Positions 2,321 through 32,029 of a DNA stretch of 64,000 bases are shown here, in pieces; position 1 is the stretch's first letter, and each line of letters begins with the position of its first letter. Location of the stretch: contig CAVSPA010000010.1 of the NCBI GenBank assembly GCA_963729715.1, positions 181,230 through 245,229 of the forward strand, given 5' to 3'. The position numbers were made by a program, and so were the translations under genes. The DNA comes from an uncultured delta proteobacterium (GTDB taxonomy: Bacteria > Desulfobacterota > Syntrophia > Syntrophales > UBA2185). A model generated the notes under the pieces. It ran no database searches. It worked only from the letters and a program-made list of their open reading frames with translations, and was not told the origin of the DNA.

Positions 2321-4098
2321 TGGTCGATGACGCAGGGAAAAGGTCTTTTGTTCTGAAGGGCATTGGTGTCTCGCCAGGCATAGTGATTGGAAAGGCGCAC
2401 CTCTTTGATCGTTTTGATGCCCAGGTTTCCTTCTACAGGCTTCGGGACAAGGACCTCGTATCGGAAGAGACTAAGAGGTTTAAGGCGGCGCTGAAGGAAT
2501 CGGAAAAACAGCTCCTTGAGGTTAAAAATAGACTGCGTGAACTGGCGGGACAGGAACCTTTATATATCATCGACGTACATTTATTGATACTCAAAGATAA
2601 GATGTTCATCAATCATACTATTCAGTATATCAAGGACTTGTGCATCAATGCGGAATGGGCCATCAAGATGACCATCGACAGATATCGAGAGATCTTTGAT
2701 AAAGTGGAAGATGAATATCTCAAAGGACGAATCAGTGATATTCGATACGTGGGGCAGATGGTTACGAGAAATCTTGCCGGAGGTAAAGATGTCGTTCCGG
2801 ATATTGCTGGCAAGGGGATAATCATTGCCGCAGACCTTTCGCCCGCGGATACTGCGCAGATGATGATGAATAAGGTGCAGGGATTTGCAACTGATATGGG
2901 AGGAAAAACATCTCATACTGCTATTGTGGCGCGTGCTGTTGAGATTCCCGCCGTAGTTGGTTTGGAGTCTATCACCAAAATGGTACGAACCAACGATGAC
3001 ATCATTATCGACGGCACGGCGGGGCTTGTTGTTGTGAATCCTGATCCGGAAATGATTAAGGTATATGACGATAAGCGGAGGCATTTTGAAATAGCCCAGG
3101 AGAATTTTCTGAAATATGCCAGACTGCCTGCTGTAACAAAAGATAATTATAGAGTGGATATAGGGGGGAATATCGAGTTTATCGAAGAGATTCCCACTGC
3201 TGTATCCCACGGTGCCGAGGGCATTGGTCTCTACAGAACGGAGTTTATCTACATAAATAAAGGACAGCTGCCCACGGAGGAAGAACACTTTTCAAACTAC
3301 AGAAGTATCGTTGGTGTAGAGGGTTTAAATTGGGCGACAATCAGAACCTTTGATCTCGGCGGTGACAAGTTTTACTCCGATCCCAAGTTGGCCAAAGAGA
3401 TGAATCCTCAAATGGGTCTGCGAGCTATCCGCTTCTGTTTGAAAGAAGTCGATATGTTTAAGGTGCAGTTGCGGGCGATTGCCCGCGCCAGTGCTTTTGG
3501 AAAGACGAGGATCATGTTTCCCATGGTTTCGGGCATTGAGGAAATACGAGAAGCCAAGAGGATCTTTTTTGAGGTTAAGGGTGATCTTGTCGCCAAAGGC
3601 ATACCAATGGGTGATGACATTGAAATTGGCGTCATGATAGAAGTTCCGTCTGCCGTGATTATTGCCGACGAACTGGCAAAAGAAGTGGATTTCTTCAGCA
3701 TAGGCACGAACGATCTTATTCAATATGCCTTGGCTATCGACAGAATAAACGAAAGAGTGACCTATTTGTATGAACCGCTCCACCCTGCCGTTTTAAGACT
3801 CATCAAGCACGTGATTGACGTCGGTCATAACGCGGGCGTTCGGGTTGCCATGTGCGGGGAAATGGCAGGCGAACCGGCGTATATCATGATTCTCTTAGGT
3901 CTTGAGATAGACGAGCTGAGTATGAATCCCCTGGCAATACCGCGGGTGAAAAAAATCATTCAGGAATCTACCCTAAAGGAATCCAAGACGCTGTTAGAGA
4001 AAGTTATGACTTTCTCATCGGCTGCTGTGATTCGAGAATTTGTCAACAACTATATGCGTGAACGTTTCCCGGAAGAATTCCAGACGAACGGCACTTGA
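2317..4098 (+). CDS. ptsI: PEP-protein phosphotransferase (PTS enzyme I)
   Basis: GGKTSHTAIVAR, GIGLYRTEF, FFSIGTNDLIQY, MCGEMAG; no GAF domain. Confidence 0.97.
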   Translation: MMVDDAGKRSFVLKGIGVSPGIVIGKAHLFDRFDAQVSFYRLRDKDLVSEETKRFKAALKESEKQLLEVKNRLRELAGQEPLYIIDVHLLILKDKMFINHTIQYIKDLCINAEWAIKMTIDRYREIFDKVEDEYLKGRISDIRYVGQMVTRNLAGGKDVVPDIAGKGIIIAADLSPADTAQMMMNKVQGFATDMGGKTSHTAIVARAVEIPAVVGLESITKMVRTNDDIIIDGTAGLVVVNPDPEMIKVYDDKRRHFEIAQENFLKYARLPAVTKDNYRVDIGGNIEFIEEIPTAVSHGAEGIGLYRTEFIYINKGQLPTEEEHFSNYRSIVGVEGLNWATIRTFDLGGDKFYSDPKLAKEMNPQMGLRAIRFCLKEVDMFKVQLRAIARASAFGKTRIMFPMVSGIEEIREAKRIFFEVKGDLVAKGIPMGDDIEIGVMIEVPSAVIIADELAKEVDFFSIGTNDLIQYALAIDRINERVTYLYEPLHPAVLRLIKHVIDVGHNAGVRVAMCGEMAGEPAYIMILLGLEIDELSMNPLAIPRVKKIIQESTLKESKTLLEKVMTFSSAAVIREFVNNYMRERFPEEFQTNGT

Positions 4099-20380: not shown

Positions 20381-21346
20381 TCAGTCGGGCTGATTAATGG
20401 CAGACAGCTGCCAGTTGCCGCTTCCTACAGACCTCGCAAAAGTCCAGTATTCTTCAAATTTAACGGGCTCTGTTTTGCTGCCTGTAAGCAAGTCGCCGCT
20501 TTCACCGACTGTGTAGTCAAGAAGGCTCGCCACGATCCTGGCGGTGATAAAATCCGTTCCGCCTTCCTGCCATGCCTCCGTGATTTCCACAGACCTGACG
20601 GCGATATTGTCGAGTTTGTTGATCTTCTTTTCGGCCTTCAATTTATTTCCGTCTCTCTGCAAAATGCCGAACATTTCTTCTGTAAGTATATTCCTGACAA
20701 GGCTCATGTCGCGGTTAATCCACGCACCCTGAATCTTGAAGAAGTTATCCATGCATAGATCCGAAAACCTTGCTTCATCAAAAGAGGGGTCCATCTGACG
20801 AATGTGGCGCAATCCCGTTTGGACGTCAGCTTCGGTGTGTCCCTGATCCCGGGAAGAATCTGCAAATCCTGTCTGTTGTCCTATTGATGGGGAAACGCCG
20901 GCTTGGTAATGGTAGCCTGCCGTAGGTGCCGCTTCTCTGCGCCTCTTGATGAGCATATATAAAATGTAAAGCAGACCGCCGATGAGGATGATATCCAAAA
21001 GTCCGATGCCACTCCCGCCGAAACCGCCCATGCCCATGCCGTGGCTGAGTCCGCTAAAGAGCAAGCTGCCCAAAAAGCCGCCTGCCACGCCCATGGCAAG
21101 CCCTCTCCACATGCTCGGTTGCTGCTGCGGCAGCTGCGGAGTCATCGGTTGAGTGAGAGTCATTGACGGACTGGACGGTGATGGCGCCGAGTATGGTCTG
21201 CTGGGAGAGCTGAAAGACCGCGAACCGCGGCTGCCCATAGACATGCCGCCTCCCGCTCTGGCAAAAGCATCCAGCTCCATTATCCCAATGAAAAAAAACA
21301 GGAATACGAAAATGGTTACTCCTATTTCCCAATTTCTTCGCGACAT
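20381..21346 (-). CDS. Tim44 domain-containing membrane protein
   Basis: ARAGGG.SMGSRGSRSF N-terminus, Gly-rich TM region, C-terminal DPSFD...FEEYWTF...WQLSAINQ. Confidence 0.9.
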   Translation of the reverse strand: MSRRNWEIGVTIFVFLFFFIGIMELDAFARAGGGMSMGSRGSRSFSSPSRPYSAPSPSSPSMTLTQPMTPQLPQQQPSMWRGLAMGVAGGFLGSLLFSGLSHGMGMGGFGGSGIGLLDIILIGGLLYILYMLIKRRREAAPTAGYHYQAGVSPSIGQQTGFADSSRDQGHTEADVQTGLRHIRQMDPSFDEARFSDLCMDNFFKIQGAWINRDMSLVRNILTEEMFGILQRDGNKLKAEKKINKLDNIAVRSVEITEAWQEGGTDFITARIVASLLDYTVGESGDLLTGSKTEPVKFEEYWTFARSVGSGNWQLSAINQPD

Positions 21347-21425
21347 ATTTGCTCCTCCTTCGAGTTACTTAGCATCTGTGCGTATCTCTCGGATTGAGAG
21401 ATACAAGTGCAAACTTTGGGGCTGG

Positions 21426-21454
21426 ATTGTAGAAGATATGTTCCCAAGTGTCAA
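21426..21454 (-). promoter_or_regulatory. Sigma70-type promoter for the Tim44 gene
   Basis: TTGACA-17 nt-TACAAT on the minus strand. Confidence 0.7.
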
Positions 21455-21599
21455 CATCTCCTTTTCATCTCCTTTTCGTTTTGTCTTTTTCAGACAGATG
21501 TTGTATTAGAGGCTTCTGTAAGGGTTTGCCTGGATATACTTCTCGAAATCATGATATACAGAAATACCTCATATGCGTATAAATAATTGAGGAATATGT

Positions 21600-22379
21600 A
21601 TGGGTGTTTACGACTTAGACGGAAAAATTATACAAGCGGCGGATCTGATAGTGCATACCAGGAATGTGGTCGTGTTTACAGGTGCCGGCGTTAGCACGGA
21701 GTCAGGCATTCCCGATTTTCGCAGCCCCGGTGGGATATGGACAAAATTCGATCCGGAAGATTTTACAATTCAAAAATTCCTCTCAAGCCCGGCGACAAGA
21801 AAAAAACAATGGCAGATGCTTCTTGATGGAGGCTTGTTTGCCAATGCCCAACCAAACAGGGCCCACCTTGCCGTTGCCCTGCTGGAGGAGATCGGTAAAC
21901 TGAACTGTGTAATCACCCAGAATGTCGACAACCTTCATCAGAGGGCCGGAAACTCTCCGGAGAAGGTCTATGAGCTGCACGGCAATATGAGGTGGCTGAA
22001 ATGCATGAGCTGTGATGCGCGCTATCCTGTGGGTGACGTCACAGATAGCTTCCGTGCCAAGGGGGAAGTCCCAGACTGCGAACGCTGCCACGGGATTCTA
22101 AAGCCGGATGTAGTTTTCTTTGGCGAACTCCTGCCCGAATGGACATTGAAAAATGCGACTGCTCATGCCACCAGATGCGAGCTCATGATTGTCATCGGGT
22201 CGTCTCTTGTCGTGTACCCGGCTGCGTACATGCCCATGTATGCTAAAGAGTCCGGGGCCAAACTGGTGATCATCAACAATACGCCCACGTCCTGCGATGA
22301 TGTTGCGGATGTTGTAATCCATCATTCTGCCGGAGTAGTGATGGAGAGCATAATGGAAAATGTCAGAAAGAGACTCTGA
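21600..22379 (+). CDS. cobB: NAD-dependent protein deacylase (sirtuin)
   Basis: GAGVSTESGIPDFR, TQNVDNLH, ELHGN, CxxC/CxxC zinc, KPDVVFFGE, GSSLVVYPAA. Confidence 0.95.
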   Translation: MGVYDLDGKIIQAADLIVHTRNVVVFTGAGVSTESGIPDFRSPGGIWTKFDPEDFTIQKFLSSPATRKKQWQMLLDGGLFANAQPNRAHLAVALLEEIGKLNCVITQNVDNLHQRAGNSPEKVYELHGNMRWLKCMSCDARYPVGDVTDSFRAKGEVPDCERCHGILKPDVVFFGELLPEWTLKNATAHATRCELMIVIGSSLVVYPAAYMPMYAKESGAKLVIINNTPTSCDDVADVVIHHSAGVVMESIMENVRKRL

Positions 22380-22387
22380 GCGAGAAG

Positions 22388-22924
22388 ATGCCGAATATTG
22401 TTGCCATAGAAACGGAAAGACTGAAACTGGTGCCGCTGAATCTCGAAAGCATAAATCCGGACGACCATCAGAGGATTGAGCAGAAGCTGGGCTTGCAGCT
22501 GGCGAGCATGATCCTGGGCGAGCAAATTGACAGGAAAATAAAAGCGGCCATGAGAGCCTCCCTCGAAGATGTAATAAGAAACAAGAAGCAGGATCAATGG
22601 TATGCGGACTGGCAAAGCGTCCTGATCATACTAAAAAAGGAAAACGCGATCATAGGGGGATTCTGTTTCCAGAGGTATCCTGATGAAGACGGCACGGTTC
22701 AAATCGGATATATGATCAGACCGGAGTATCAGAGAGAGGGATACATGACGGAGGCTCTGAAAAAAGGAATCTCATGGATATTTGAGCGCCCTGATATATC
22801 GGCCTTGCTTGCAGACACTACGAAATCTAACCGGCCGTCGCACAGGGTGCTGGAAAAGGTCGGCATGGTCGTATATAAAGAAACGGATAATAGTATCTGG
22901 TGGAGGATCGAGAGATGTGCCTGA
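22388..22924 (+). CDS. GNAT-family N-acetyltransferase (RimJ/RimL-like)
   Basis: IETERL, QIGYMIRPEYQREGYMTEA, SNRPSHRVLEKVG. Confidence 0.88.
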   Translation: MPNIVAIETERLKLVPLNLESINPDDHQRIEQKLGLQLASMILGEQIDRKIKAAMRASLEDVIRNKKQDQWYADWQSVLIILKKENAIIGGFCFQRYPDEDGTVQIGYMIRPEYQREGYMTEALKKGISWIFERPDISALLADTTKSNRPSHRVLEKVGMVVYKETDNSIWWRIERCA

Positions 22925-23685
22925 TTATCTTGTCCTACAAAGTCCATGATAGATACCCTTTCATCCTTGCGGCTAATAGGGATGAGTTCTACGAGAGGCC
23001 TTCGGCACCGGTTTCTTTATGGGAGGATGCCGTGGGCGTGATCGCGGGGAAGGATTTGCTGAGGGGTGGAACTTGGCTGGGTATCAGGAAGACGGGAAGT
23101 CTCGCCATGCTCACCAACTACCGTGAACCAACGCCTTTTGGGCGGAACGCCCCATCGCGGGGGTGGCTCGTAAGGGATTTTCTTGTGAGCGAGGAGGAAC
23201 CGGAATCATATATCGAAACTGTTGCGGCCAAGAAAGATCAATATAACGGGTTCAATATGATCATCGGAGACCTGAATCGCCTGTTCTACTTTTCCAACCG
23301 CGGTGAAATGCTTGAACTGTCACCGGGCCTTTACGGTTTGAGCAACAGTATCCTCGATACGCCCTGGCCCAAGATCGAGCGAGCGAAAAAGGCGATAGAG
23401 TCCTTGCTCACAAGTAAAGAAGATCCTCTTCCGGAAGAGATTTTCGCAATCCTGAAAGACCGGTCAAAACCGGAGGCCAGCGAACTGCCTGATACGGGCG
23501 TGGGGCTGGAATGGGAACGGATTCTTTCCTCTATATTTATAACGAGCCCCATCTATGGCACCCGCTCCTCCTCAGTTATTATGATTGACAGAAAGAACCA
23601 TTGCATGTTTATAGAAAGGGTCTTTAATGCACATCCCGAACCGTGGATGGAGGCAAGGTTTGACTTCCGGCTTCATGGTAATTGA
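22915..23685 (+). CDS. NRDE/TANGO2-family protein
   Basis: N-terminal MCL, AANRDEFY, GGTWLG, SRG.LV.DFL, LSN..LDTPWPK, YGTRSS. Confidence 0.93.
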   Translation: MCLIILSYKVHDRYPFILAANRDEFYERPSAPVSLWEDAVGVIAGKDLLRGGTWLGIRKTGSLAMLTNYREPTPFGRNAPSRGWLVRDFLVSEEEPESYIETVAAKKDQYNGFNMIIGDLNRLFYFSNRGEMLELSPGLYGLSNSILDTPWPKIERAKKAIESLLTSKEDPLPEEIFAILKDRSKPEASELPDTGVGLEWERILSSIFITSPIYGTRSSSVIMIDRKNHCMFIERVFNAHPEPWMEARFDFRLHGN

Positions 23686-23716
23686 GTGAAGTCAGAGACA
23701 GAAGAGAAGGCGCAAG

Positions 23717-24157
23717 ATGTCGAGGCGTGAATATCCGGACAGGCCGATTTGTGGAGTCGGAGCGGTCGTAATCAGAGAAGGGAAGGTGCTCCTTGTAAGA
23801 CGCGGTGTCGATCCGAATAAGGGACTGTGGGCAATCCCCGGAGGCTCACTAAACTTAGGCGAAACCCTGCAGGAAGGTGCGGAAAGGGAGATTCTCGAAG
23901 AAACCGGCGTTACCATCAAGGCAGGAGCACCTGTCTACTCCTTTGATTTTTTTGAAGAGGATAGTGAAGGGCGGATGCGCTTTCATTATGTGATTGTGGA
24001 CATGATCGCTGATTACGTATGCGGTGAGGCGAAGGGAGCTGACGATGCCCTCGAAGCGAGGTGGGTTGCACCTGCGGAGCTCAGACATATGCACGTCTCA
24101 AGAAATACCCTGAGGATTCTGGATTTCTTGAAAAGTCATTTTCGCGAGGAGGTGTAG
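23717..24157 (+). CDS. NUDIX hydrolase (ADP-ribose pyrophosphatase-like)
   Basis: YPDRPICGVG, Nudix box GG..LGETLQEGAEREILEETG. Confidence 0.9.
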   Translation: MSRREYPDRPICGVGAVVIREGKVLLVRRGVDPNKGLWAIPGGSLNLGETLQEGAEREILEETGVTIKAGAPVYSFDFFEEDSEGRMRFHYVIVDMIADYVCGEAKGADDALEARWVAPAELRHMHVSRNTLRILDFLKSHFREEV

Positions 24158-24159
24158 TC

Positions 24160-24906
24160 ATGAAGGTCATTTATCACAAGGACTTTAATCAAACATACTG
24201 TTCTGATCCTGCCGCTGCGCCGGGCCGCATCGAGGCAGTCGTCAAGGCAATCCGTGACAAATGGACTCTTGTAGATGCAGTTCCCGCCCGGAAAGAAGAC
24301 ATTGGCGCTTGTCATACACCATCTCATATGGAAAGAGTGGCGAGAGAAGGGGTATATGATATTGCTGCGCTGGCGGCCGGAGGCGCCATACAGGCTGCCG
24401 AGATTGGCTTGCTGGAGCCATGTTTTGCCGTGATCAGGCCGCCCGGGCACCACGCCTCTGCCAATAGTGCATGGGGGTTCTGCTATTTTAACAATATGGC
24501 GATCGCTCTCGAAAAGTTAAAACGGGAAAACCGGATTAAGAAGGCGTTCGTGCTGGATATCGATCTTCATTTCGGCGATGGAACAGTGAATATCCTGGAA
24601 GGGACCGGTTATGTGTCCATCTGCAATCCTACGGCATCCAACCCGGAAGAATATCTGAAAAGTGTAAAAAGCCGCCTCTCTGAGGAGAAGGTAGATATCA
24701 TAGGGGTATCTGCTGGTTTTGACAATCATGAACAGGATTGGGGCGGGCTCCTTTCAACAGCTGACTATACGGCGATTGGAAAAATGGTCAGGGATGCCAG
24801 CAAGAAAAACGGTGGAGGCTGTTTTGCCATCCTGGAAGGCGGGTATAATCATTCCGTTCTGGGACAGAACGTAATGGCTTTCATCGAGGGCATGGAAGGG
24901 AAGTAA
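24160..24906 (+). CDS. Zn-dependent histone deacetylase-family protein (short form)
   Basis: RPPGHH, GFCYFNN, DIDLHFGDGT, SAGFD, LEGGY; SD GGAGG before ATG at 24160. Confidence 0.93.
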   Translation: MKVIYHKDFNQTYCSDPAAAPGRIEAVVKAIRDKWTLVDAVPARKEDIGACHTPSHMERVAREGVYDIAALAAGGAIQAAEIGLLEPCFAVIRPPGHHASANSAWGFCYFNNMAIALEKLKRENRIKKAFVLDIDLHFGDGTVNILEGTGYVSICNPTASNPEEYLKSVKSRLSEEKVDIIGVSAGFDNHEQDWGGLLSTADYTAIGKMVRDASKKNGGGCFAILEGGYNHSVLGQNVMAFIEGMEGK

Positions 24907-24947
24907 AAAAAAGCAGGGATGGTTCAAATGCCATCCTTGCTTTTTTT
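24905..24947. terminator. Bidirectional rho-independent terminator
   Basis: A-tract, stem gcagggatgg / ccatccttgc, T-tract, between convergent genes. Confidence 0.85.
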
Positions 24948-24982: not shown

Positions 24983-26209
24983 TCAGTAACCCATCTTCTT
25001 CATGAAGCCCTGTCCGCTCAGTGGTTGTCTCTCTACCAATTGACCAACTTTCACCCTTTTTAAATCTTGCGGTTTGCCTTCCACTGTAACCCACGCGCTT
25101 TCCGCCTGGACCTGGTCTGTTACCGTCAGCTCAACAGGCAGTTTCACGATGTTGCAGGTTATCTTCTTGCTTCCACTCACAGGATCTTCGTCCTCCATTT
25201 CTTCGAATGTGTAAGCAATCATCTTTGTACCCGGCTTGAGCCCGACTTTTTCGCCAATGTTCAAATTTGCATATCTTTCCTTTTCATCCTGGCGCGTCCG
25301 CAATTGTCTTATATAACCTTTGACGGTGAACCATTTGGATAGTTTTGGCCTTGTGTTTTCTATTCCTTTGGATGCCGCCTTCTTGATGCCACCGACCAAG
25401 GCATCGTAGTTAGGGTAGGGGATTTTGCCGATATTAACTTTCCCGATGACCTTATCTGATAATAGAACTTCACCTGTTTCTACATCAAGAATTCTCAGTG
25501 TCAGCTCCGTACCGATGTTCCAGCCTTCCTGCGCTTCCAGACCGGCTGCCATCGCCGAGCCCAAGAGGTCAACGCCCCAACTGCCGCTGCCTCCTCTGCC
25601 AAGACCCTGTCTGGCAGACTCGTAGCTCTTGTACGATAGATCAACGTTATTGACAGAACCTGTGATGATGTATTTTACGCCGGCAAATTTTCCGAGTCTT
25701 ACCAACGTCGATTCATCCACGAGCCCCGAACGCTGGAACTTTTGTTCCGATATGATTTTGTCCATTTCTTTTCTCGTAAAAACCTTCGCCCCTCCCATAT
25801 TCACTAATTCGTTCATCACGCCGTCTTCAACACTCTCGGGGAGCTTTGCATTTATCTGTCTCTGCGTTACTTCTGAATCTCTCTGAAACTGCCGCTTTTC
25901 CTTGGTGCCCCAGACAACGCCGGCAGCTCCTGGAACAACACCGACAGCGGCGCCCCCTACGGCAGTTCGCTGACTTGCGCCCTGAACATGGGACTGTACC
26001 ACATTGGCATAATCAAAAGTGGAGTTGTTTGTAAAATTGACGACAGCAACTTTCGGGAGCATGGCGTCATACGCAGATTTGCATGCTTTAGGCGGCGACT
26101 CTTTCGGTCCTTTGTCTACAGGATATGCCATGGGATCGATCTTCGGCACAGCTGCGCAGGCAGCCAAAAAGAATGACGCAAGAAAAAGTAGTGCGACTCT
26201 CTTAAACAT
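24983..26209 (-). CDS. CsgG/HfaB-like lipoprotein with FlgT-C-like C-terminal domain
   Basis: Lipobox LAAC; VAVVNF, R.EMDKIISEQ, GVKYIITGSV, LRILDVETGEV; C-terminal LNIG..VGLKPG...DPVSG. Confidence 0.7.
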   Translation of the reverse strand: MFKRVALLFLASFFLAACAAVPKIDPMAYPVDKGPKESPPKACKSAYDAMLPKVAVVNFTNNSTFDYANVVQSHVQGASQRTAVGGAAVGVVPGAAGVVWGTKEKRQFQRDSEVTQRQINAKLPESVEDGVMNELVNMGGAKVFTRKEMDKIISEQKFQRSGLVDESTLVRLGKFAGVKYIITGSVNNVDLSYKSYESARQGLGRGGSGSWGVDLLGSAMAAGLEAQEGWNIGTELTLRILDVETGEVLLSDKVIGKVNIGKIPYPNYDALVGGIKKAASKGIENTRPKLSKWFTVKGYIRQLRTRQDEKERYANLNIGEKVGLKPGTKMIAYTFEEMEDEDPVSGSKKITCNIVKLPVELTVTDQVQAESAWVTVEGKPQDLKRVKVGQLVERQPLSGQGFMKKMGY

Positions 26210-26222
26210 GCAGCTCTCCTCC

Positions 26223-27353
26223 TTATTTCTGGTAATCCAATATCAGGGAATAGGGTGAAAAATTTACTACGTTAAAATTACCTTTCTGTTTTATGCTGTT
26301 GGCCAGATAGATTGAGTTCTCAGGGTAGCTGACTATGAACTCTCCCATCTGTTTATCCTCCACTCCTGTCACCCAAACAATGTTCTGCAGAGTATTTTTG
26401 ATTTCCATGTTCGTATCAAGGTCGGTTACCCCATTGACCTTTATGTTTATTTTTTTGACATTGCCCTTGACGTAGGATGCAACTTTATCAAGTATCTTGG
26501 GGGTCAATTTTTCTGCGAGGTCTTTAAGACCTTCCGCGGCGGCATCCTCAACGTTGTTCGCGAGACCTTTGCCCTGTGCGGTATCCGCCGTAAGAATCTC
26601 CATACTGCCCGTCTTGTTGTTCTTGGCAACGATGCGATAGGTCAGTCTTACAGTAACATTATTGAATGGCATGGAGAGTCCGTAGCCAATGTCCTCTCCC
26701 TTCTTTGTCGATATGGTGTAATCGACCTTGCCGATGATGATTATATTGGAGAGGAATTTATACATCATACTCCTCACGGCCATGGTACTGCCACTTTGCA
26801 CCGCCTTTTCGATTTCACGAGCGTCGACAGCCTGCGTCGGTGCCACGTCGACGACCTTATAGTTTTGATCGGTGAGTTTTCCGATGAGGGTCTCTGAAAG
26901 GATATTCGTTTCCTCGAATTCATCTCCACGCTTGCCTGGTTTCCTTGCCGGAATAAAGACGGCAAGGGAGTTGTTCAGGGCAAGGGAGGAAACGGCTTCC
27001 CTCGCCTTGGCAGGTTCAACACAGGCCGAGATTTTTACTGTGACCATGTCTTCTTTGCTGGCTTGGTCGAGGACCTTGTAGCTCTTGATGACTCCTTCAA
27101 CCTGCGTCTTTATCACGTCTTCGACGAGTGTGAAATTTTGCACAAAGCTCTGTGCCTTGATTTGTGTTCCGACCGTCTGTTCGATGGCTGCCCATTTAGC
27201 TCTGGCAATGGCTTCCGTTTTTGCCGAAGGGAGATCATTATTGATGATGGCTGCTTCTCCCTGGGTATTTACGCACTTTTCTTGACACAGGCCCGCTGAC
27301 ACGGAGACGAAGCTAAGTAACAGTGACGCAATAACGATGATTATTCTGTACAT
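26223..27353 (-). CDS. Exported protein with FlgT N-terminal-like domain
   Basis: Signal peptide; GEAAI...AKTEAIARAKWAAIEQTVG.QI pattern. Confidence 0.6.
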   Translation of the reverse strand: MYRIIIVIASLLLSFVSVSAGLCQEKCVNTQGEAAIINNDLPSAKTEAIARAKWAAIEQTVGTQIKAQSFVQNFTLVEDVIKTQVEGVIKSYKVLDQASKEDMVTVKISACVEPAKAREAVSSLALNNSLAVFIPARKPGKRGDEFEETNILSETLIGKLTDQNYKVVDVAPTQAVDAREIEKAVQSGSTMAVRSMMYKFLSNIIIIGKVDYTISTKKGEDIGYGLSMPFNNVTVRLTYRIVAKNNKTGSMEILTADTAQGKGLANNVEDAAAEGLKDLAEKLTPKILDKVASYVKGNVKKINIKVNGVTDLDTNMEIKNTLQNIVWVTGVEDKQMGEFIVSYPENSIYLANSIKQKGNFNVVNFSPYSLILDYQK

Positions 27354-27474: not shown

Positions 27475-28851
27475 TCACTTGCCGATGCAAAAAGCAGAAA
27501 ATATTCTGTCCAGTACTTCTTCAGTAACCGTTTCTCCGGCTATTTCACCAAGACTTTCAAGTGCTTGGCGGATATCAAAAACCGAGAATTCAGGGGAAAG
27601 TCCCTGGAGGATGCCGTCCCGGGCCTTTGACAGGAGGTCCCTTGTTTTTTCGATGGCGATCTTATGGCGGATATTGGATACTATGTTCAGGGTGCGGCCA
27701 CGGTCCGGACCATTGAGAACAAGACTGTGGATTGCGTCTTTCAGTGCCGGTATGCCGTCGCCGTGTTTTGCTGATATCCATAGGGGCGGCATGACATCGG
27801 GATAAAGACCTGCCAACTCATTTCCGTCAAGGGCATGAGGAAGATCAGCTTTGTTGACGACTATGAAGAATTTTTTCGTTTTGCACCTCTCGACGATCTC
27901 GACGTCCTCTTTCGTCAAGGCCTCGCTGCCGTCGACAACGACTATTGCCACATCCGCCTGTGAAAGTTTTTCCCATACGAGATCTACGCCTTCTTTTTCG
28001 ACAACATTCTGTGGTTCTCTCAGTCCTGCCGTATCCGTGAGTTTCACAGGCACCCCCCTGATGGAGATGGTCTCCTCAATGAAATCCCTCGTTGTTCCCG
28101 GCAGGGCTGTCACGATGGCCCTTTTTTCACCGAGAAGCCTGTTTAACAGACTCGACTTTCCCACATTCGGCCTTCCCGCAATTACGGCATTAATGCCATC
28201 CCGGTATATTTTCCCCTCTTCGCATGTCGAAGCAAGTCCACTCAGTTCGTCGACAATGTCCGCGATATTTTTGGCGGCACTTAGGGGATCACCGACCGCT
28301 ATGTCTTCGTCCGAGAAATCGATGGATGTCTCGAGGACGGCGAGGATATCAATAATCGCCTTACGTATAGTTTCAATTTTGCAAGCCAAGTCACCTTTGA
28401 GTTGGGAGACGGCAAGGTCAAGGGCCCTGTCAGTTTGTGCCATGATCGTTTCCGCTACCGCCTCCGCTTGGGAAAGATCGATGCGGTTGTTGAGAAAGGC
28501 GCGTTTCGTGAATTCGCCTGGTTTTGCAAGACGTGCACCTGCTTTGATGACTTCTGAAAGCACGGACTGAAGAATAAAACCGCTGCCGTGGCAGTTGATC
28601 TCGAGAATGTCTTCTCCCGTATAAGAGTGAGGTTTCATCATGAAGGAAATAAGAACTTCATCGATGACTCTGCCGGTGCCAGGTGAAATAATGTCTCCGT
28701 GATATAGTCGATGGCTGTTGAAGCCGTCAGTATTGTTTGATGGTCTGAAAATGAGGGAGGCGATATCTCCGGACCTGGGGCCGCTCACGCGTATGATGCC
28801 GATCGCTCCCGTACCCGGAGGAGTGGCTATGGCCGCTATCGTGTCTTCCAA
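27475..28851 (-). CDS. mnmE: tRNA modification GTPase MnmE
   Basis: DTIAAIATP, GEFTKRAFLN, GRPNVGKSS, GTTRD, C-terminal FCIGK. Confidence 0.98.
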   Translation of the reverse strand: MEDTIAAIATPPGTGAIGIIRVSGPRSGDIASLIFRPSNNTDGFNSHRLYHGDIISPGTGRVIDEVLISFMMKPHSYTGEDILEINCHGSGFILQSVLSEVIKAGARLAKPGEFTKRAFLNNRIDLSQAEAVAETIMAQTDRALDLAVSQLKGDLACKIETIRKAIIDILAVLETSIDFSDEDIAVGDPLSAAKNIADIVDELSGLASTCEEGKIYRDGINAVIAGRPNVGKSSLLNRLLGEKRAIVTALPGTTRDFIEETISIRGVPVKLTDTAGLREPQNVVEKEGVDLVWEKLSQADVAIVVVDGSEALTKEDVEIVERCKTKKFFIVVNKADLPHALDGNELAGLYPDVMPPLWISAKHGDGIPALKDAIHSLVLNGPDRGRTLNIVSNIRHKIAIEKTRDLLSKARDGILQGLSPEFSVFDIRQALESLGEIAGETVTEEVLDRIFSAFCIGK

Positions 28852-29061
28852 GTCTGATAACCTCTCGAAAGCTAAATATCAAGTTAAGAAAAGGGTGATG
28901 ATAAGGGCGAAAGTCAGAAGAGGTATCTTCTGACAAGCTCAGATTAAGACTCGCCTAAAGTGTGAGATATACAAGGGTGTGCAGCGTAGTTGCCCCGAGC
29001 CAGCATAGGAAGAGATGAATAGGCAAAATTACAGTTCCGGGCACATAGCACGCTGCCAAAC

Positions 29062-29796
29062 CTAACTCTTCTTGGCCGGCATAATAACGATTTTTCTGAA
29101 TTCCCCTTCGCCCCGGCTTTTTGTAGTCAATGACTCGTCATTTTGCAAAGCAAGATGGATGACGCGGCGGTCATGGGCGTTCATGTGTCCTACAGTCAAC
29201 GCCTTCTTTGACCTTTTTACTTTTTCTGCCAGCCTTCCTGCCAGCGCAATGAGTGACTCTTCCCTTTTCTTTCTGTAGGATTCCGTATCCACAACGATCA
29301 TCTTGCGGTTGTTTGAATTCTTGCTTACTGACTTGTTCACAATGTACTGTATGGCATCTAAGTTCTGCCCTCTCTTGCCTATAAGTAAGCCACTGCCATC
29401 ACCCTTGATATTTAACAGAATCGTATCATCATTTTCGTCAACGGTTAATGGGCAATCAAGGCTCATTCTCTGCAAGATGCCTTGCAAGATTCTTTTTGCC
29501 CTCACTGCGGGTCTCTCTGCGGAATCTTCGGGCCCCGCCGGTTCTATCGAATCTGAAACAACAGATGATTTGCTTTGAGCACCTTTTCGGGATTGTGCAG
29601 GCGGCGTATCCATGGCCATATCAATGGACATGATACTTGCTTTAATTTTTGCCTTTTTAGAGCCGAGGCCGAGGAATCCCGTCGCGCCGTCTGAAATGAT
29701 CTCTATGTTAAGTTTTTCCCTCGGAACGTTGAATTCGCTGCAGGCTTTTTCAATGGCCTCGTCTATTGTCTTCCCTTCGATTTCTATAGAATTCAT
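29062..29796 (-). CDS. jag: RNA-binding protein Jag/EloR/KhpB
   Basis: Jag_N domain, KH GLLIGKRG, R3H DRRVIH. Confidence 0.93.
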   Translation of the reverse strand: MNSIEIEGKTIDEAIEKACSEFNVPREKLNIEIISDGATGFLGLGSKKAKIKASIMSIDMAMDTPPAQSRKGAQSKSSVVSDSIEPAGPEDSAERPAVRAKRILQGILQRMSLDCPLTVDENDDTILLNIKGDGSGLLIGKRGQNLDAIQYIVNKSVSKNSNNRKMIVVDTESYRKKREESLIALAGRLAEKVKRSKKALTVGHMNAHDRRVIHLALQNDESLTTKSRGEGEFRKIVIMPAKKS

Positions 29797-29814
29797 AATA
29801 ACTACCTCAATTCA

Positions 29815-31425
29815 CTATCTGCGCTTATTAATGTAGTATTGTTGCCCGATGCTCAGTACGTTTTGAAAGAGCCAGTAAATAACGAGACCCGACGGAAAAT
29901 TTACGAAAAGAAATGTGAAAACCACGGGCATGAACATCATAATTTTTTGCTGCATAGGATCGCCCATGGAAGGAGTCATTTTTTGCTGAACGAGCATGGT
30001 CGCACCCATGATGATCGGCGTAATGTAGTAGGGGTCCTTTGCCGAGAGATCATGTATCCACCAGTAAAAAGGGGCATGGCGGAGTTCAATGGAATACATG
30101 AGAGCCTTGTAGAGCCCAAAGAAGACTGGTATCTGAATGACCATGGGCAGACATCCACCCAAGGGGTTTACCTTGTGCGTCTTGTACAGGGCCATTGTTT
30201 CCTGACTCAGTTTTGCCTTATCACTTTTGTACTTTTCACGAAGTTCGGCTATCTTCGGCTGTAGTTTCTGCATCTCCTTCATGGATTTGTAGCTCTTGTT
30301 GCCCAGGGGCCAGAAGATAATCTTTATCAGGATGGTCAGGATGATAATGGCGATGCCATAATTGTGAACATAGCTGTCGAGAAATTTGACGGAGATCAAG
30401 AGCGGCATGGCGAGCCACTTCATCCATGAGCCGAAATCTATAGCATTCTCGAGGCCGACTCCCTGAGCTTTGAGAATGTCATTCTCCTTAGGTCCGAGGT
30501 ATAATGAGTAGCCAAACGAAGCGACCTGTCCGGGAGGGATAATGGTGGGAGTGCTTTTCAGGTTCACAGAAACCATATTCCGGGGATCCACGGAAAGAGC
30601 AAGACTGGTCAGCGTCGGGTTTTGGGGCACCATGGCGGCAAGAAAATATTTGCTTTCAAACCCCGCCCAGGCGATATCAGGGCCGGCTAATTTTCCTGAT
30701 TCAATCTTTTTGACTTCGTAACGCTCTACGTCTTTGGCAATGTAGGAAATAGGTCCATCATGCCCGTAACTGTCTGATTTTGAGTTCGGGTCCACATACT
30801 GATTCCAGGAAAGAAGCGCACTTTCACTGAGGGCTGCTCTTGATACGTTATGTATTCTGACTTCCAAATCAAAGGCATATTTATCAGGATAGAAAGTGAA
30901 TATCTTTTCTTCTTTTATCTCATTGGCGAATGTCTGCGTAAAGGTGAGTATTCGGCTCTCAGGACTTTGTGTCATATCAATAGACACTGTATCGGATGTG
31001 AATACACTTTCAGGGTGTACGGCGACACTTGATTCGGGAAAAGTCATTGTGAGAGGTTTCGGCATGCCGTCCATAATGTGGACGAGTTCAATAGGTTCCG
31101 AGTCCTTGTCGAGAGAGCTGCGGTAGTTCTTCAGTTTGTAAGATTTCAGGCTGCCGCCTTTCGTGGAGAAAACGGCCCTATAAAGAGAAGTCTCCACAGG
31201 GATATCCTTTTCGATTCCCATGACCGGCTTTGAAAGAACGGTTCCGCCCTTAACAGTCGCCACCTGTGCCGGGGCAGCCACTTTACCGGCGGGCGTTTCT
31301 TTAACTGCCGTCTCCTGCCGGGCTGGTCCCAGTTGTTGCTGGGGCGGTTTTTTGACAAAAAATGCCTGCCAGACAAGTATGACCGCCACTGACAGGATTA
31401 TGGCAAGAAAGGCCTTCTTGTCCAT
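29815..31425 (-). CDS. yidC: Membrane protein insertase YidC
   Basis: NYGIAIIILT, KVNPLGGCLP, DLSAKDPYY, PSGLVIYW. Confidence 0.97.
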   Translation of the reverse strand: MDKKAFLAIILSVAVILVWQAFFVKKPPQQQLGPARQETAVKETPAGKVAAPAQVATVKGGTVLSKPVMGIEKDIPVETSLYRAVFSTKGGSLKSYKLKNYRSSLDKDSEPIELVHIMDGMPKPLTMTFPESSVAVHPESVFTSDTVSIDMTQSPESRILTFTQTFANEIKEEKIFTFYPDKYAFDLEVRIHNVSRAALSESALLSWNQYVDPNSKSDSYGHDGPISYIAKDVERYEVKKIESGKLAGPDIAWAGFESKYFLAAMVPQNPTLTSLALSVDPRNMVSVNLKSTPTIIPPGQVASFGYSLYLGPKENDILKAQGVGLENAIDFGSWMKWLAMPLLISVKFLDSYVHNYGIAIIILTILIKIIFWPLGNKSYKSMKEMQKLQPKIAELREKYKSDKAKLSQETMALYKTHKVNPLGGCLPMVIQIPVFFGLYKALMYSIELRHAPFYWWIHDLSAKDPYYITPIIMGATMLVQQKMTPSMGDPMQQKIMMFMPVVFTFLFVNFPSGLVIYWLFQNVLSIGQQYYINKRR

Positions 31426-31452
31426 TCAATACCTCCGTACTTTAGTTTTGGT

Positions 31453-31689
31453 TTATTTAACTGGATCGTAACCGCCGGGGTGAAGAGGATGACACCGTAA
31501 CAGGCGTATCAGAGCAATGTACGGTCCTCTGACTGGGCCATATCGCCGGATTGCGTCTATGGCATACTCGGAACAAGACGGGTAAAAACGGCAACATGGG
31601 GTAAAAAGAGGAGAAATGCACATCTGGTACAATCGGATAAATACAATAAGAATTTTTCCCAGAATCTGCGCGAACGTTATCTCATGCAT
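31453..31689 (-). CDS. yidD: Membrane protein insertion efficiency factor
   Basis: [22 protein letters not shown]. Confidence 0.95.
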
Positions 31690-32029
31690 CTGATTTCTTG
31701 ATTAAGTGGCTTTCTAACTCTGTGTATACATCTTGATATGTCAATGTTGTTATATTTCTTTTTGCAATTATCACGATGTCTTGTGGAGTAGAAAGTCTTG
31801 GTCTGTTTAATCTAAAAAATTCTCTTACGAGACGTCTAATCCTGCTTCTCTCTACAGCGCCCCCCACCTTTTTACTGACCGTTATTCCCAGTCTGCTAAT
31901 GCCCATTTCATTCTTACATACGAGGATGGTGAAATGTTCCGAATGGCTGCGCACCCCCTGCTGATAGACGGTCAAATAATCTCTTCTCTTGATAATTCTT
32001 ACGTGCTTGCCAAAGGATTGTTTTTCCAT
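31682..32029 (-). CDS. rnpA: Ribonuclease P protein component
   Basis: [21 protein letters not shown]; position in cluster. Confidence 0.93.

Follow-up and report, generated by a model that had tools for sequence, protein, structure and literature searches.

The window analyzed here is a 64,000-nucleotide (nt) stretch of DNA from an uncultured delta proteobacterium of the order Syntrophales (GTDB lineage Bacteria; Desulfobacterota; Syntrophia; Syntrophales; UBA2185), positions 181,230 to 245,229 of contig CAVSPA010000010.1 in the assembly GCA_963729715.1. At window positions 21,600 to 24,947 it carries a cluster of five genes encoding a sirtuin, a GNAT acyltransferase, a TANGO2/NRDE protein, a NUDIX hydrolase, and a short HDAC-family enzyme (Table 1). 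Within Syntrophales, and only there, the order and orientation of these genes are kept in distant relatives while the flanking genes change. We interpret the cluster as a possible deacylation operon.

The open reading frame (ORF) coordinates bear out the layout given in the original prediction, with five co-oriented genes separated, when its starts are used, by gaps of 8, −10, 31, and 2 nt; Pfam also names all five families that it had proposed. An overlap of the GNAT stop with the TANGO2 start, 10 nt long in the window, is found throughout the 19 complete clusters of the window's family. A Shine-Dalgarno-like purine run, GAGGA, lies 7 nt before the sirtuin ATG at 21600, while GGAGGA precedes the TANGO2 ATG at 22915 and GGAGG the HDAC ATG at 24160. 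Two frames are open from earlier GTG codons as well, that of TANGO2 from 22900 (261 amino acids, aa) and that of HDAC from 24061 (281 aa). Starting at its ATG, the TANGO2 protein begins with Met-Cys and has the N-terminal cysteine described in the original prediction.

A single terminator closes the cluster, as had also been predicted. This 41-nt element forms an 18-bp hairpin (the A8/T7 pairs included) with a G+C-rich core and the A8 and T7 tracts at its flanks. Its folding energy is −26.1 kcal/mol (z = −6.9), and none of 200 shuffled sequences folded as well; the consensus scan listed it for the minus strand. No internal terminator in the same scan is convincing: it gave 6 sites, with 3.7 ± 2.0 expected, and both plus-strand terminator-like sites within the cluster have poor T tails. 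No sigma-70-like promoter was found on the plus strand of the 253-nt spacer upstream of 21600. The spacer does contain a near-consensus promoter, TTGACA-17-TACAAT, at 21454-21426 on the minus strand, positioned for the divergent Tim44-like gene. The five genes are likely to form one putative operon.

Table 1. Genes and signals of the cluster (positions in the window)
Feature	Position	Strand	Remarks
Sirtuin gene, predicted Sir2-family NAD-dependent protein deacylase, CobB-like	21600-22379	+	259 aa; ORF list, Pfam
GNAT acyltransferase, RimJ/RimL-like	22388-22924	+	178 aa; ORF list, Pfam
TANGO2/NRDE, predicted Cys N-terminal-nucleophile (Ntn) hydrolase	22915-23685	+	256 aa from ATG 22915
NUDIX hydrolase, possibly ADP-ribose pyrophosphatase	23717-24157	+	146 aa; PF00293
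Short HDAC-family zinc amidohydrolase	24160-24906	+	248 aa from ATG 24160
Intergenic region common to the cluster and the divergent Tim44-like gene	21347-21599		253 nt; presumed promoter site
Bidirectional intrinsic terminator (A8, stem-loop, T7)	24907-24947		Ends the cluster and the convergent CsgG-like gene

Predicted enzymes

All five proteins retain their catalytic residues, as judged from alignments and, for the Nudix box, by eye. The sirtuin matches the SIR2 family (PF02146, 1.6e-53, 181.8 bits against a 24-bit cut-off) and passes the cut-off of the NCBIfam model NF001753, 'NAD-dependent protein deacylase' (273.3 bits, cut-off 243). Its closest solved chains are Sir2Af2 (1ma3, 1.2e-63) and Sir2Tm (1yc5), and these nearest solved relatives are proven deacylases. 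Among 18 sequences, G28-A29-G30 and S32 of the NAD-binding GAGxS motif, the catalytic H127, and the zinc cysteines C135, C160, and C163 are invariant, and the fourth zinc cysteine, C138, is nearly so. Judged by its sequence, the protein is a canonical CobB-like enzyme. We considered an anti-phage SIR2 defense system and rejected it, as the sirtuin has no PADLOC match and is of the canonical CobB-like type; PADLOC likewise gave no defense-model match for GNAT, TANGO2, or HDAC, and assigned NUDIX to a generic candidate family only. The genome of the window encodes a second sirtuin, of 233 aa, outside the window (C3:176697-177206; L158 1459-2160).

The GNAT protein was assigned to Acetyltransf_3 (PF13302, 4.4e-20, 73.2 bits against a cut-off of 25.4) and also matches PF00583 (2.7e-13), reaching no NCBIfam equivalog. 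Its closest solved chains are 3fbu, RimJ (3igr), 1nsl, and PA3944.

To our knowledge, no activity is known for any member of PF05742 (TANGO2/NRDE). The window protein matches this family over almost its entire length (1.1e-76, 258.8 bits, profile positions 1-256 of 257). All 15 phylum sequences compared share M1, C2, the NRDE motif N21-R22-D23-E24, N144, and K153. Similar to human TANGO2 and to its bacterial homologue HtpA of Shewanella, the protein has the full family length, the Met-Cys start, and the NRDE motif, and it matches the human structures 9bwa and 8sv7 at 1e-41; what differs is its genomic context with two deacylases, which is found only in Syntrophales. The invariant residues correspond to C2, N25, R26, D27, N157, and K166 of human TANGO2, named as catalytic in a 2026 crystal study that describes the human protein as structurally a Cys Ntn hydrolase, binding acyl-CoA and proposed to act on fatty-acyl derivatives (PMC13044924).

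It is also conceivable that the TANGO2 protein is a heme-trafficking protein, in which case its position in the cluster would say nothing about its chemistry. HtpA is reported to bind heme and to raise the cytochrome c content, and heme trafficking has been proposed for it (PMC10470608); the accessible part of that paper does not discuss gene neighborhoods. By contrast, heme binding by human TANGO2 was nonspecific in the crystal study (PMC13044924), and an eLife paper disputes the heme role (PMC12782551). Moreover, neither the window nor any of the Syntrophales loci examined has a heme or cytochrome-maturation gene beside TANGO2, and the Ntn catalytic residues are invariant here, while a mere carrier would not need them. 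We consider a heme carrier very improbable.

The NUDIX protein matches PF00293 (4.1e-19, 69.4 bits against a 21.1-bit cut-off), and its translation, read by eye, contains a complete Nudix box (consensus GX5EX7REUXEEXGU). Nudix hydrolases that cleave O-acetyl-ADP-ribose are known, such as yeast Ysa1 and human NUDT5. Among NCBIfam models, the window protein is best matched by the ADP-ribose-cleaving Nudix halves of NadM-Nudix enzymes (3.8e-17), and its best match among solved chains is the bifunctional NMN adenylyltransferase/Nudix hydrolase 2qjo (2.5e-11); the ADP-ribose pyrophosphatase of Thermus (1v8i) is matched at 1e-7. Unlike the NadM-Nudix enzymes, it is a stand-alone protein, and its scores of 46-63 bits are far below the NCBIfam cut-offs of 354-449. 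Specificity for ADP-ribose derivatives is thus only hinted at by these matches.

The HDAC protein matches Hist_deacetyl (PF00850, 3.9e-37) over profile positions 68-167 and, as a second stretch, 224-297 of 298; positions 168-223 are unmatched, so that it falls short of a full-length catalytic domain. Still, H97-H98, D133, H137, D188, and G227-G228-Y229 do not vary among 25 sequences, and the His-His dyad, the Asp-His-Asp zinc ligands, and the tyrosine of the GGY motif align to the HDAC6 motifs. An AlphaFold2 model (pLDDT 88.7, pTM 0.90) gave Foldseek TMq values of 0.83-0.89 to HDAH, Kdac1, HDAC6 CD1, 5ji5, and the lysine deacylase 5zmp. On this model, the short HDAC is predicted to fold as a class-II-like deacylase. 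It has the same fold and the same full set of zinc and catalytic residues as the class-II-like enzymes (HDAH, Kdac1, acetylpolyamine amidohydrolase, 5zmp) but is 60-125 residues shorter than their 305-374 aa. We know of no characterized member of this short form. The form is no local oddity, as full-length matches, mostly in frames of 250-300 aa, occur in 104 genomes of an even set of 301 from the phylum, usually unlinked to a sirtuin or TANGO2. Two full-length HDAC-family genes lie elsewhere in the genome of the window (C5:676528-677388 and C3:249286-250167).

Conservation within Syntrophales

Our order-level sample comprised 41 Syntrophales genomes, that of the window included: 22 from its family (f1) and 19 from other families, one genome each. 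Loci were scanned with hidden Markov models (HMMs) built from orthologues. PF05742 was found in 36 of the 41 genomes. In the window's family, Sir2-GNAT-TANGO2-NUDIX-HDAC occur in this order in 19 of the 22 genomes; in one more the contig ends after TANGO2, and two genomes, both of one genus, have Sir2-GNAT-NUDIX-HDAC without TANGO2. GNAT is restricted to this family, being present in all 22 of its genomes and in none of the other 19.

The other families retain the remaining four genes, here called the core, to a varying degree. Seven of the 19 genomes carry Sir2-TANGO2-NUDIX-HDAC, three Sir2-TANGO2-NUDIX, two Sir2-TANGO2-HDAC, and two Sir2-TANGO2, while TANGO2-NUDIX (with a contig end upstream), TANGO2-HDAC, and Sir2-NUDIX-HDAC are found in one genome each; the last two genomes have the sirtuin and the short HDAC on different contigs and no TANGO2. 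In 17 of these families the genes share one strand and are co-linear, and the gaps between them are short or negative. Across the other families, identity to the window's proteins ranges from 46 to 67%, being lowest for TANGO2 (46-62%). Among the five genomes in which TANGO2 was not found, three still hold Sir2-(GNAT)-NUDIX-HDAC together. Public sequences added ten Syntrophales-like loci with a sirtuin beside TANGO2 (one of them cut inside TANGO2), six of which have HDAC as well; an eleventh locus, L082, has TANGO2-NUDIX only.

In 15 order-level loci examined over ±6 kb, Sir2 adjoins TANGO2 in 13 of the 14 evaluable cases. Among the genes flanking the cluster in the window, Tim44 recurs in none of the 15 loci, CsgG in one, FlgT_N in five, and MnmE in eight. 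The upstream genes vary across the order and include those for CdaA, CorA, prephenate dehydrogenase, an AMP-binding enzyme, a histidine kinase, OmpA, and a YadA adhesin; the upstream flank has been replaced at least seven times.

Unrelated insertions are rare, and each of those found is confined to a single genome: a DUF559 endonuclease-like gene between the sirtuin and TANGO2 (L087, 3527-3892), a PRAI-like gene between TANGO2 and NUDIX (L059, 6470-7483), and a SnoaL/EF-hand gene between NUDIX and HDAC (L081, 5204-5980). In locus L025 (genome G013, ca. 2739-3420), the HDAC gene consists of two overlapping HMM pieces and may be frameshifted or partly duplicated. An apparent Sir2-TANGO2 fusion in genome G037, a 546-aa open frame, was rejected, as the two matches are in different frames.

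Proposed function

We infer the pathway and each of its functional steps from family knowledge, on the observed anatomy and the conserved gene order. The cluster may be a Syntrophales-specific deacylation operon, which would rid proteins or small amines of unwanted acyl groups and dispose of the by-products; we hold this reading with about even confidence. Sir2 would strip acyl-lysines with NAD+, yielding nicotinamide and 2'-O-acyl-ADP-ribose, and the short HDAC-type zinc enzyme would hydrolyze other acyl-amides, on lysine or on polyamines. NUDIX would then cleave ADP-ribose or O-acyl-ADP-ribose to AMP and ribose phosphate. The N-terminal cysteine of TANGO2, with its free amine and thiol, could hydrolyze an acyl amide, ester, or thioester of the same traffic. 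GNAT would be a later accessory, an acyl-CoA-dependent acyltransferase added only in the window's family.

The acyl-CoA-based lifestyle of syntrophs fits as a setting for such a cluster. According to one study, Syntrophus relatives have reactive acyl-CoA intermediates and abundant lysine acylation derived from them; in S. aciditrophicus, seven kinds of lysine acylation stem from acyl-CoAs of the benzoate pathway, and there are two sirtuins, one of which, SYN_00042, removed glutaryl, butyryl, and succinyl groups and left acetyl groups in place (PMC8942843). We count these abundant acyl-lysines and the active sirtuin paralogue in favor of a deacylation operon.

Two characterized systems invite comparison. 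In Bacillus subtilis, the acuABC operon encodes the GNAT acetyltransferase AcuA and the HDAC-type deacetylase AcuC, which control acetyl-CoA synthetase. Similarly, the window combines a GNAT and an HDAC-family deacetylase in one putative operon, as a possible writer and eraser of lysine acylation, and the short HDAC is labeled 'AcuC-like' by JGI annotators. By contrast, neither an AcuB-type protein nor an adjacent acsA was found by Pfam among the five genes and four neighbors, and an AMP-binding gene lies upstream in one relative only (L068). Moreover, the GNAT of the window is RimJ/L-like and confined to one family, its HDAC is the minimal 248-aa form, and a sirtuin, NUDIX, and TANGO2 are added. 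Pat and CobB provide reversible lysine acylation in Salmonella and E. coli. The window shares with them, and with the sirtuins of S. aciditrophicus, a CobB-like enzyme in an organism with reactive acyl-CoA chemistry; we know of no CobB clustered with TANGO2, NUDIX, or HDAC. Among literature titles on TANGO2 with gene neighborhoods, sirtuins, or deacylases, we found none on a bacterial sirtuin-TANGO2 cluster.

A more specific role for TANGO2 can be proposed, although we give it little credence: it may supply the missing third step of the sirtuin chemistry. Its cysteine would deacylate 2'-O-acyl-ADP-ribose (or acyl-CoA, an ADP-bearing compound of similar chemistry), setting free the acid or handing the acyl group on, before NUDIX dismantles the ADP-ribose. 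Loss of TANGO2 causes a severe metabolic disease in humans, and its activity is disputed, the candidates being a heme carrier, an acyl-CoA binder, and an Ntn hydrolase. Its retention between a sirtuin and NUDIX, usually together with a second deacylase, across many families points to O-acyl-ADP-ribose, acyl-CoA, and acyl-amides as candidate substrates. If TANGO2 did deacylate O-acyl-ADP-ribose, this would reveal the long-sought activity of the protein behind human TANGO2 deficiency disorder. More generally, the cluster suggests that syntrophs have a system for controlling acyl damage, and it draws attention to a compact 248-aa form of HDAC that is common in the phylum.

Linkage outside Syntrophales and alternative explanations

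Several observations weigh against a deacylation operon, most of them from outside the order. TANGO2 occurs in 69 of the 301 phylum genomes; the neighbor counts given here leave out ca. 33 more divergent TANGO2 matches (E 1e-16 to 1e-37). Among 26 newly fetched loci from the phylum, all five from Syntrophales have a sirtuin, as does one of the 21 from other orders (genome G109); the other 20 lack Sir2, NUDIX, and HDAC within 1.5 kb of TANGO2. Of 80 public loci with a TANGO2 alignment, 69 are from outside the order, spanning Desulfobacterales, Pseudomonadota, Bacillota, Bacteroidota, Acidobacteriota, Ignavibacteriota, and Gemmatimonadota, and none of these has Sir2 or HDAC within the up to 4 kb covered on each side. 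Pfam revealed no common theme among the 128 ORFs flanking TANGO2 in the 69 loci. In all, a sirtuin stands beside TANGO2 in one of 90 loci outside Syntrophales.

No phyletic correlation is seen either. The short HDAC (104 of 301 genomes) and close homologues of the sirtuin (231 of 301) are widespread in the phylum as separate genes. By a hand tally, the short HDAC is found in 14 of the 60 TANGO2-bearing genomes from outside the order, against 95 of 291 genomes overall, and in none of the 14 genomes holding both are the two genes close together. No fusion of TANGO2 to Sir2, HDAC, NUDIX, or GNAT was found among 15 longer homologues, which is weak evidence. In a maximum-likelihood tree computed by a quick search from 138 distinct TANGO2 sequences (minimum length 200 aa, with shorter rows and duplicates dropped), 41 of the 46 Sir2-adjacent rows fall into one weakly supported clade, suggesting that the linkage arose essentially once. 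The evidence from the order is therefore one of persistence and not of independent reassembly, and its single origin and restriction to one order limit the weight of the TANGO2 clue. Even within Syntrophales, some lineages have a cluster without TANGO2, some without NUDIX, and some without HDAC, and the downstream mnmE-jag-yidC-rnpA synteny is partly kept (8 of 15 loci), indicating some inertia.

These observations are what the main rival explanation would lead one to expect: unrelated housekeeping genes could have been joined in an ancestor of Syntrophales and kept by synteny inertia, possibly co-transcribed, without sharing a pathway. The essentially single origin, the near-absence of linkage and the lack of a co-occurrence signal outside the order, the loss of members one by one, and the syntenic mnmE block all speak for it. 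However, mere inertia accounts poorly for the tight co-linearity in 17 of the 19 other families, seven of them with all four core genes, at protein identities of 46-67%, with the upstream flanks repeatedly replaced and unrelated insertions rare. Furthermore, two of the four core genes encode deacylases of different mechanism and a third encodes an enzyme that can act on the sirtuin product, a theme that would rarely arise by chance. We therefore regard historical co-location as unlikely, albeit as the most serious competitor of a deacylation operon.

The sirtuin itself gives further grounds for caution. In an alignment printed in a supplement of PMC8942843, it tracks, by eye, the row of SYN_01020 far more closely than that of SYN_00042, and SYN_01020 'did not display reproducible activity'. 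The cluster sirtuin thus appears to be of a type for which no reproducible deacylase activity is in print. We looked for the locus tags adjoining SYN_01020 in the supplements of that paper and in the accessible literature, and found none.

Both the lack of reproducible SYN_01020 activity and the closeness of NUDIX to the NadM-Nudix domains of NAD metabolism would suit a system centered on NAD+ and ADP-ribose, with the sirtuin acting mainly as an ADP-ribosyltransferase or NAD+ consumer, NUDIX controlling ADP-ribose, and TANGO2 and HDAC being bystanders or reversing other modifications. Sirtuin operons for ADP-ribosylation do exist, as in the SirTM-macrodomain-GcvH-L-LplA2 operon, and anti-phage SIR2 systems are known as well. 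The window resembles them in having a sirtuin in a conserved putative operon; it differs in that Pfam found neither a macrodomain nor GcvH-L nor a lipoate ligase among the cluster genes, and in the absence of a PADLOC match for the sirtuin. Moreover, the sirtuin is of the canonical CobB/Sir2Af2-like type and scores above the NCBIfam deacylase cut-off, and in six of the 19 other-family genomes the cluster lacks NUDIX, five of them still having part of it. We consider an NAD+/ADP-ribose system quite unlikely.

A deacylation operon remains our preferred interpretation, in a looser form than was first proposed. The original prediction described a candidate module that writes, erases, and recycles acylation, took scattered genes in relatives as counterevidence, and saw in the module a functional context for bacterial TANGO2. 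Linkage held within Syntrophales, where the genes are co-linear and tightly spaced, and the catalytic residues are intact; hardly any linkage was seen outside the order. The write/erase/recycle picture is too tidy, because the GNAT 'writer' is confined to one family, TANGO2 is dispensable (it was not found in 5 of 41 genomes), linkage is nearly absent elsewhere (1 of 21 and 0 of 69 loci), the most similar printed sirtuin, SYN_01020, showed no reproducible activity, and the ADP-ribose specificity of NUDIX is only hinted at. Since linkage outside the order is nearly absent, the context applies to TANGO2 of Syntrophales as a lineage-specific arrangement with one origin, and does not extend to bacterial TANGO2 in general.

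The single sirtuin-TANGO2 pair from outside the order, that of G109 (locus L072, 5950-7652), has a 190-nt gap and belongs to family f51. Four other genomes of this family have TANGO2 without an adjacent sirtuin. In the tree, f51 TANGO2 is nested beside a Syntrophales family (Shimodaira-Hasegawa-like approximate likelihood-ratio test, SH-aLRT, 96-97), which suggests a transfer or a misplaced lineage.

TANGO2 has other neighbors elsewhere. A thiolase gene is divergent to it in six Desulfobacterales-type loci (L098, L101, L103, L104, L107, and L123), and same-strand neighbors include genes for an enoyl-CoA hydratase (L091) and a 4HBT thioesterase (L114). We take these as a weak and separate hint at a link between TANGO2 and acyl-CoA. 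Other flanking genes encode RNase HII (four Bacteroidota loci), nitroreductases (three), Usp (three), and various GNATs (four).

Neighboring genes

The product of the gene divergent from the cluster, at 20381-21346 on the minus strand, is rich in Gly, Ser, and Pro in its N-terminal half and has a Tim44-like domain at the C-terminal end (PF04280, 2.5e-40); this gene is the upstream neighbor of the cluster only in the window's family. Downstream, CsgG-like and FlgT_N-like genes (Pfam names) occupy 24983-27353 on the minus strand, between the cluster and mnmE. They are followed by the mnmE-jag-yidC-rnpA block (Pfam) at 27475-32029, also on the minus strand and thus convergent to the cluster.

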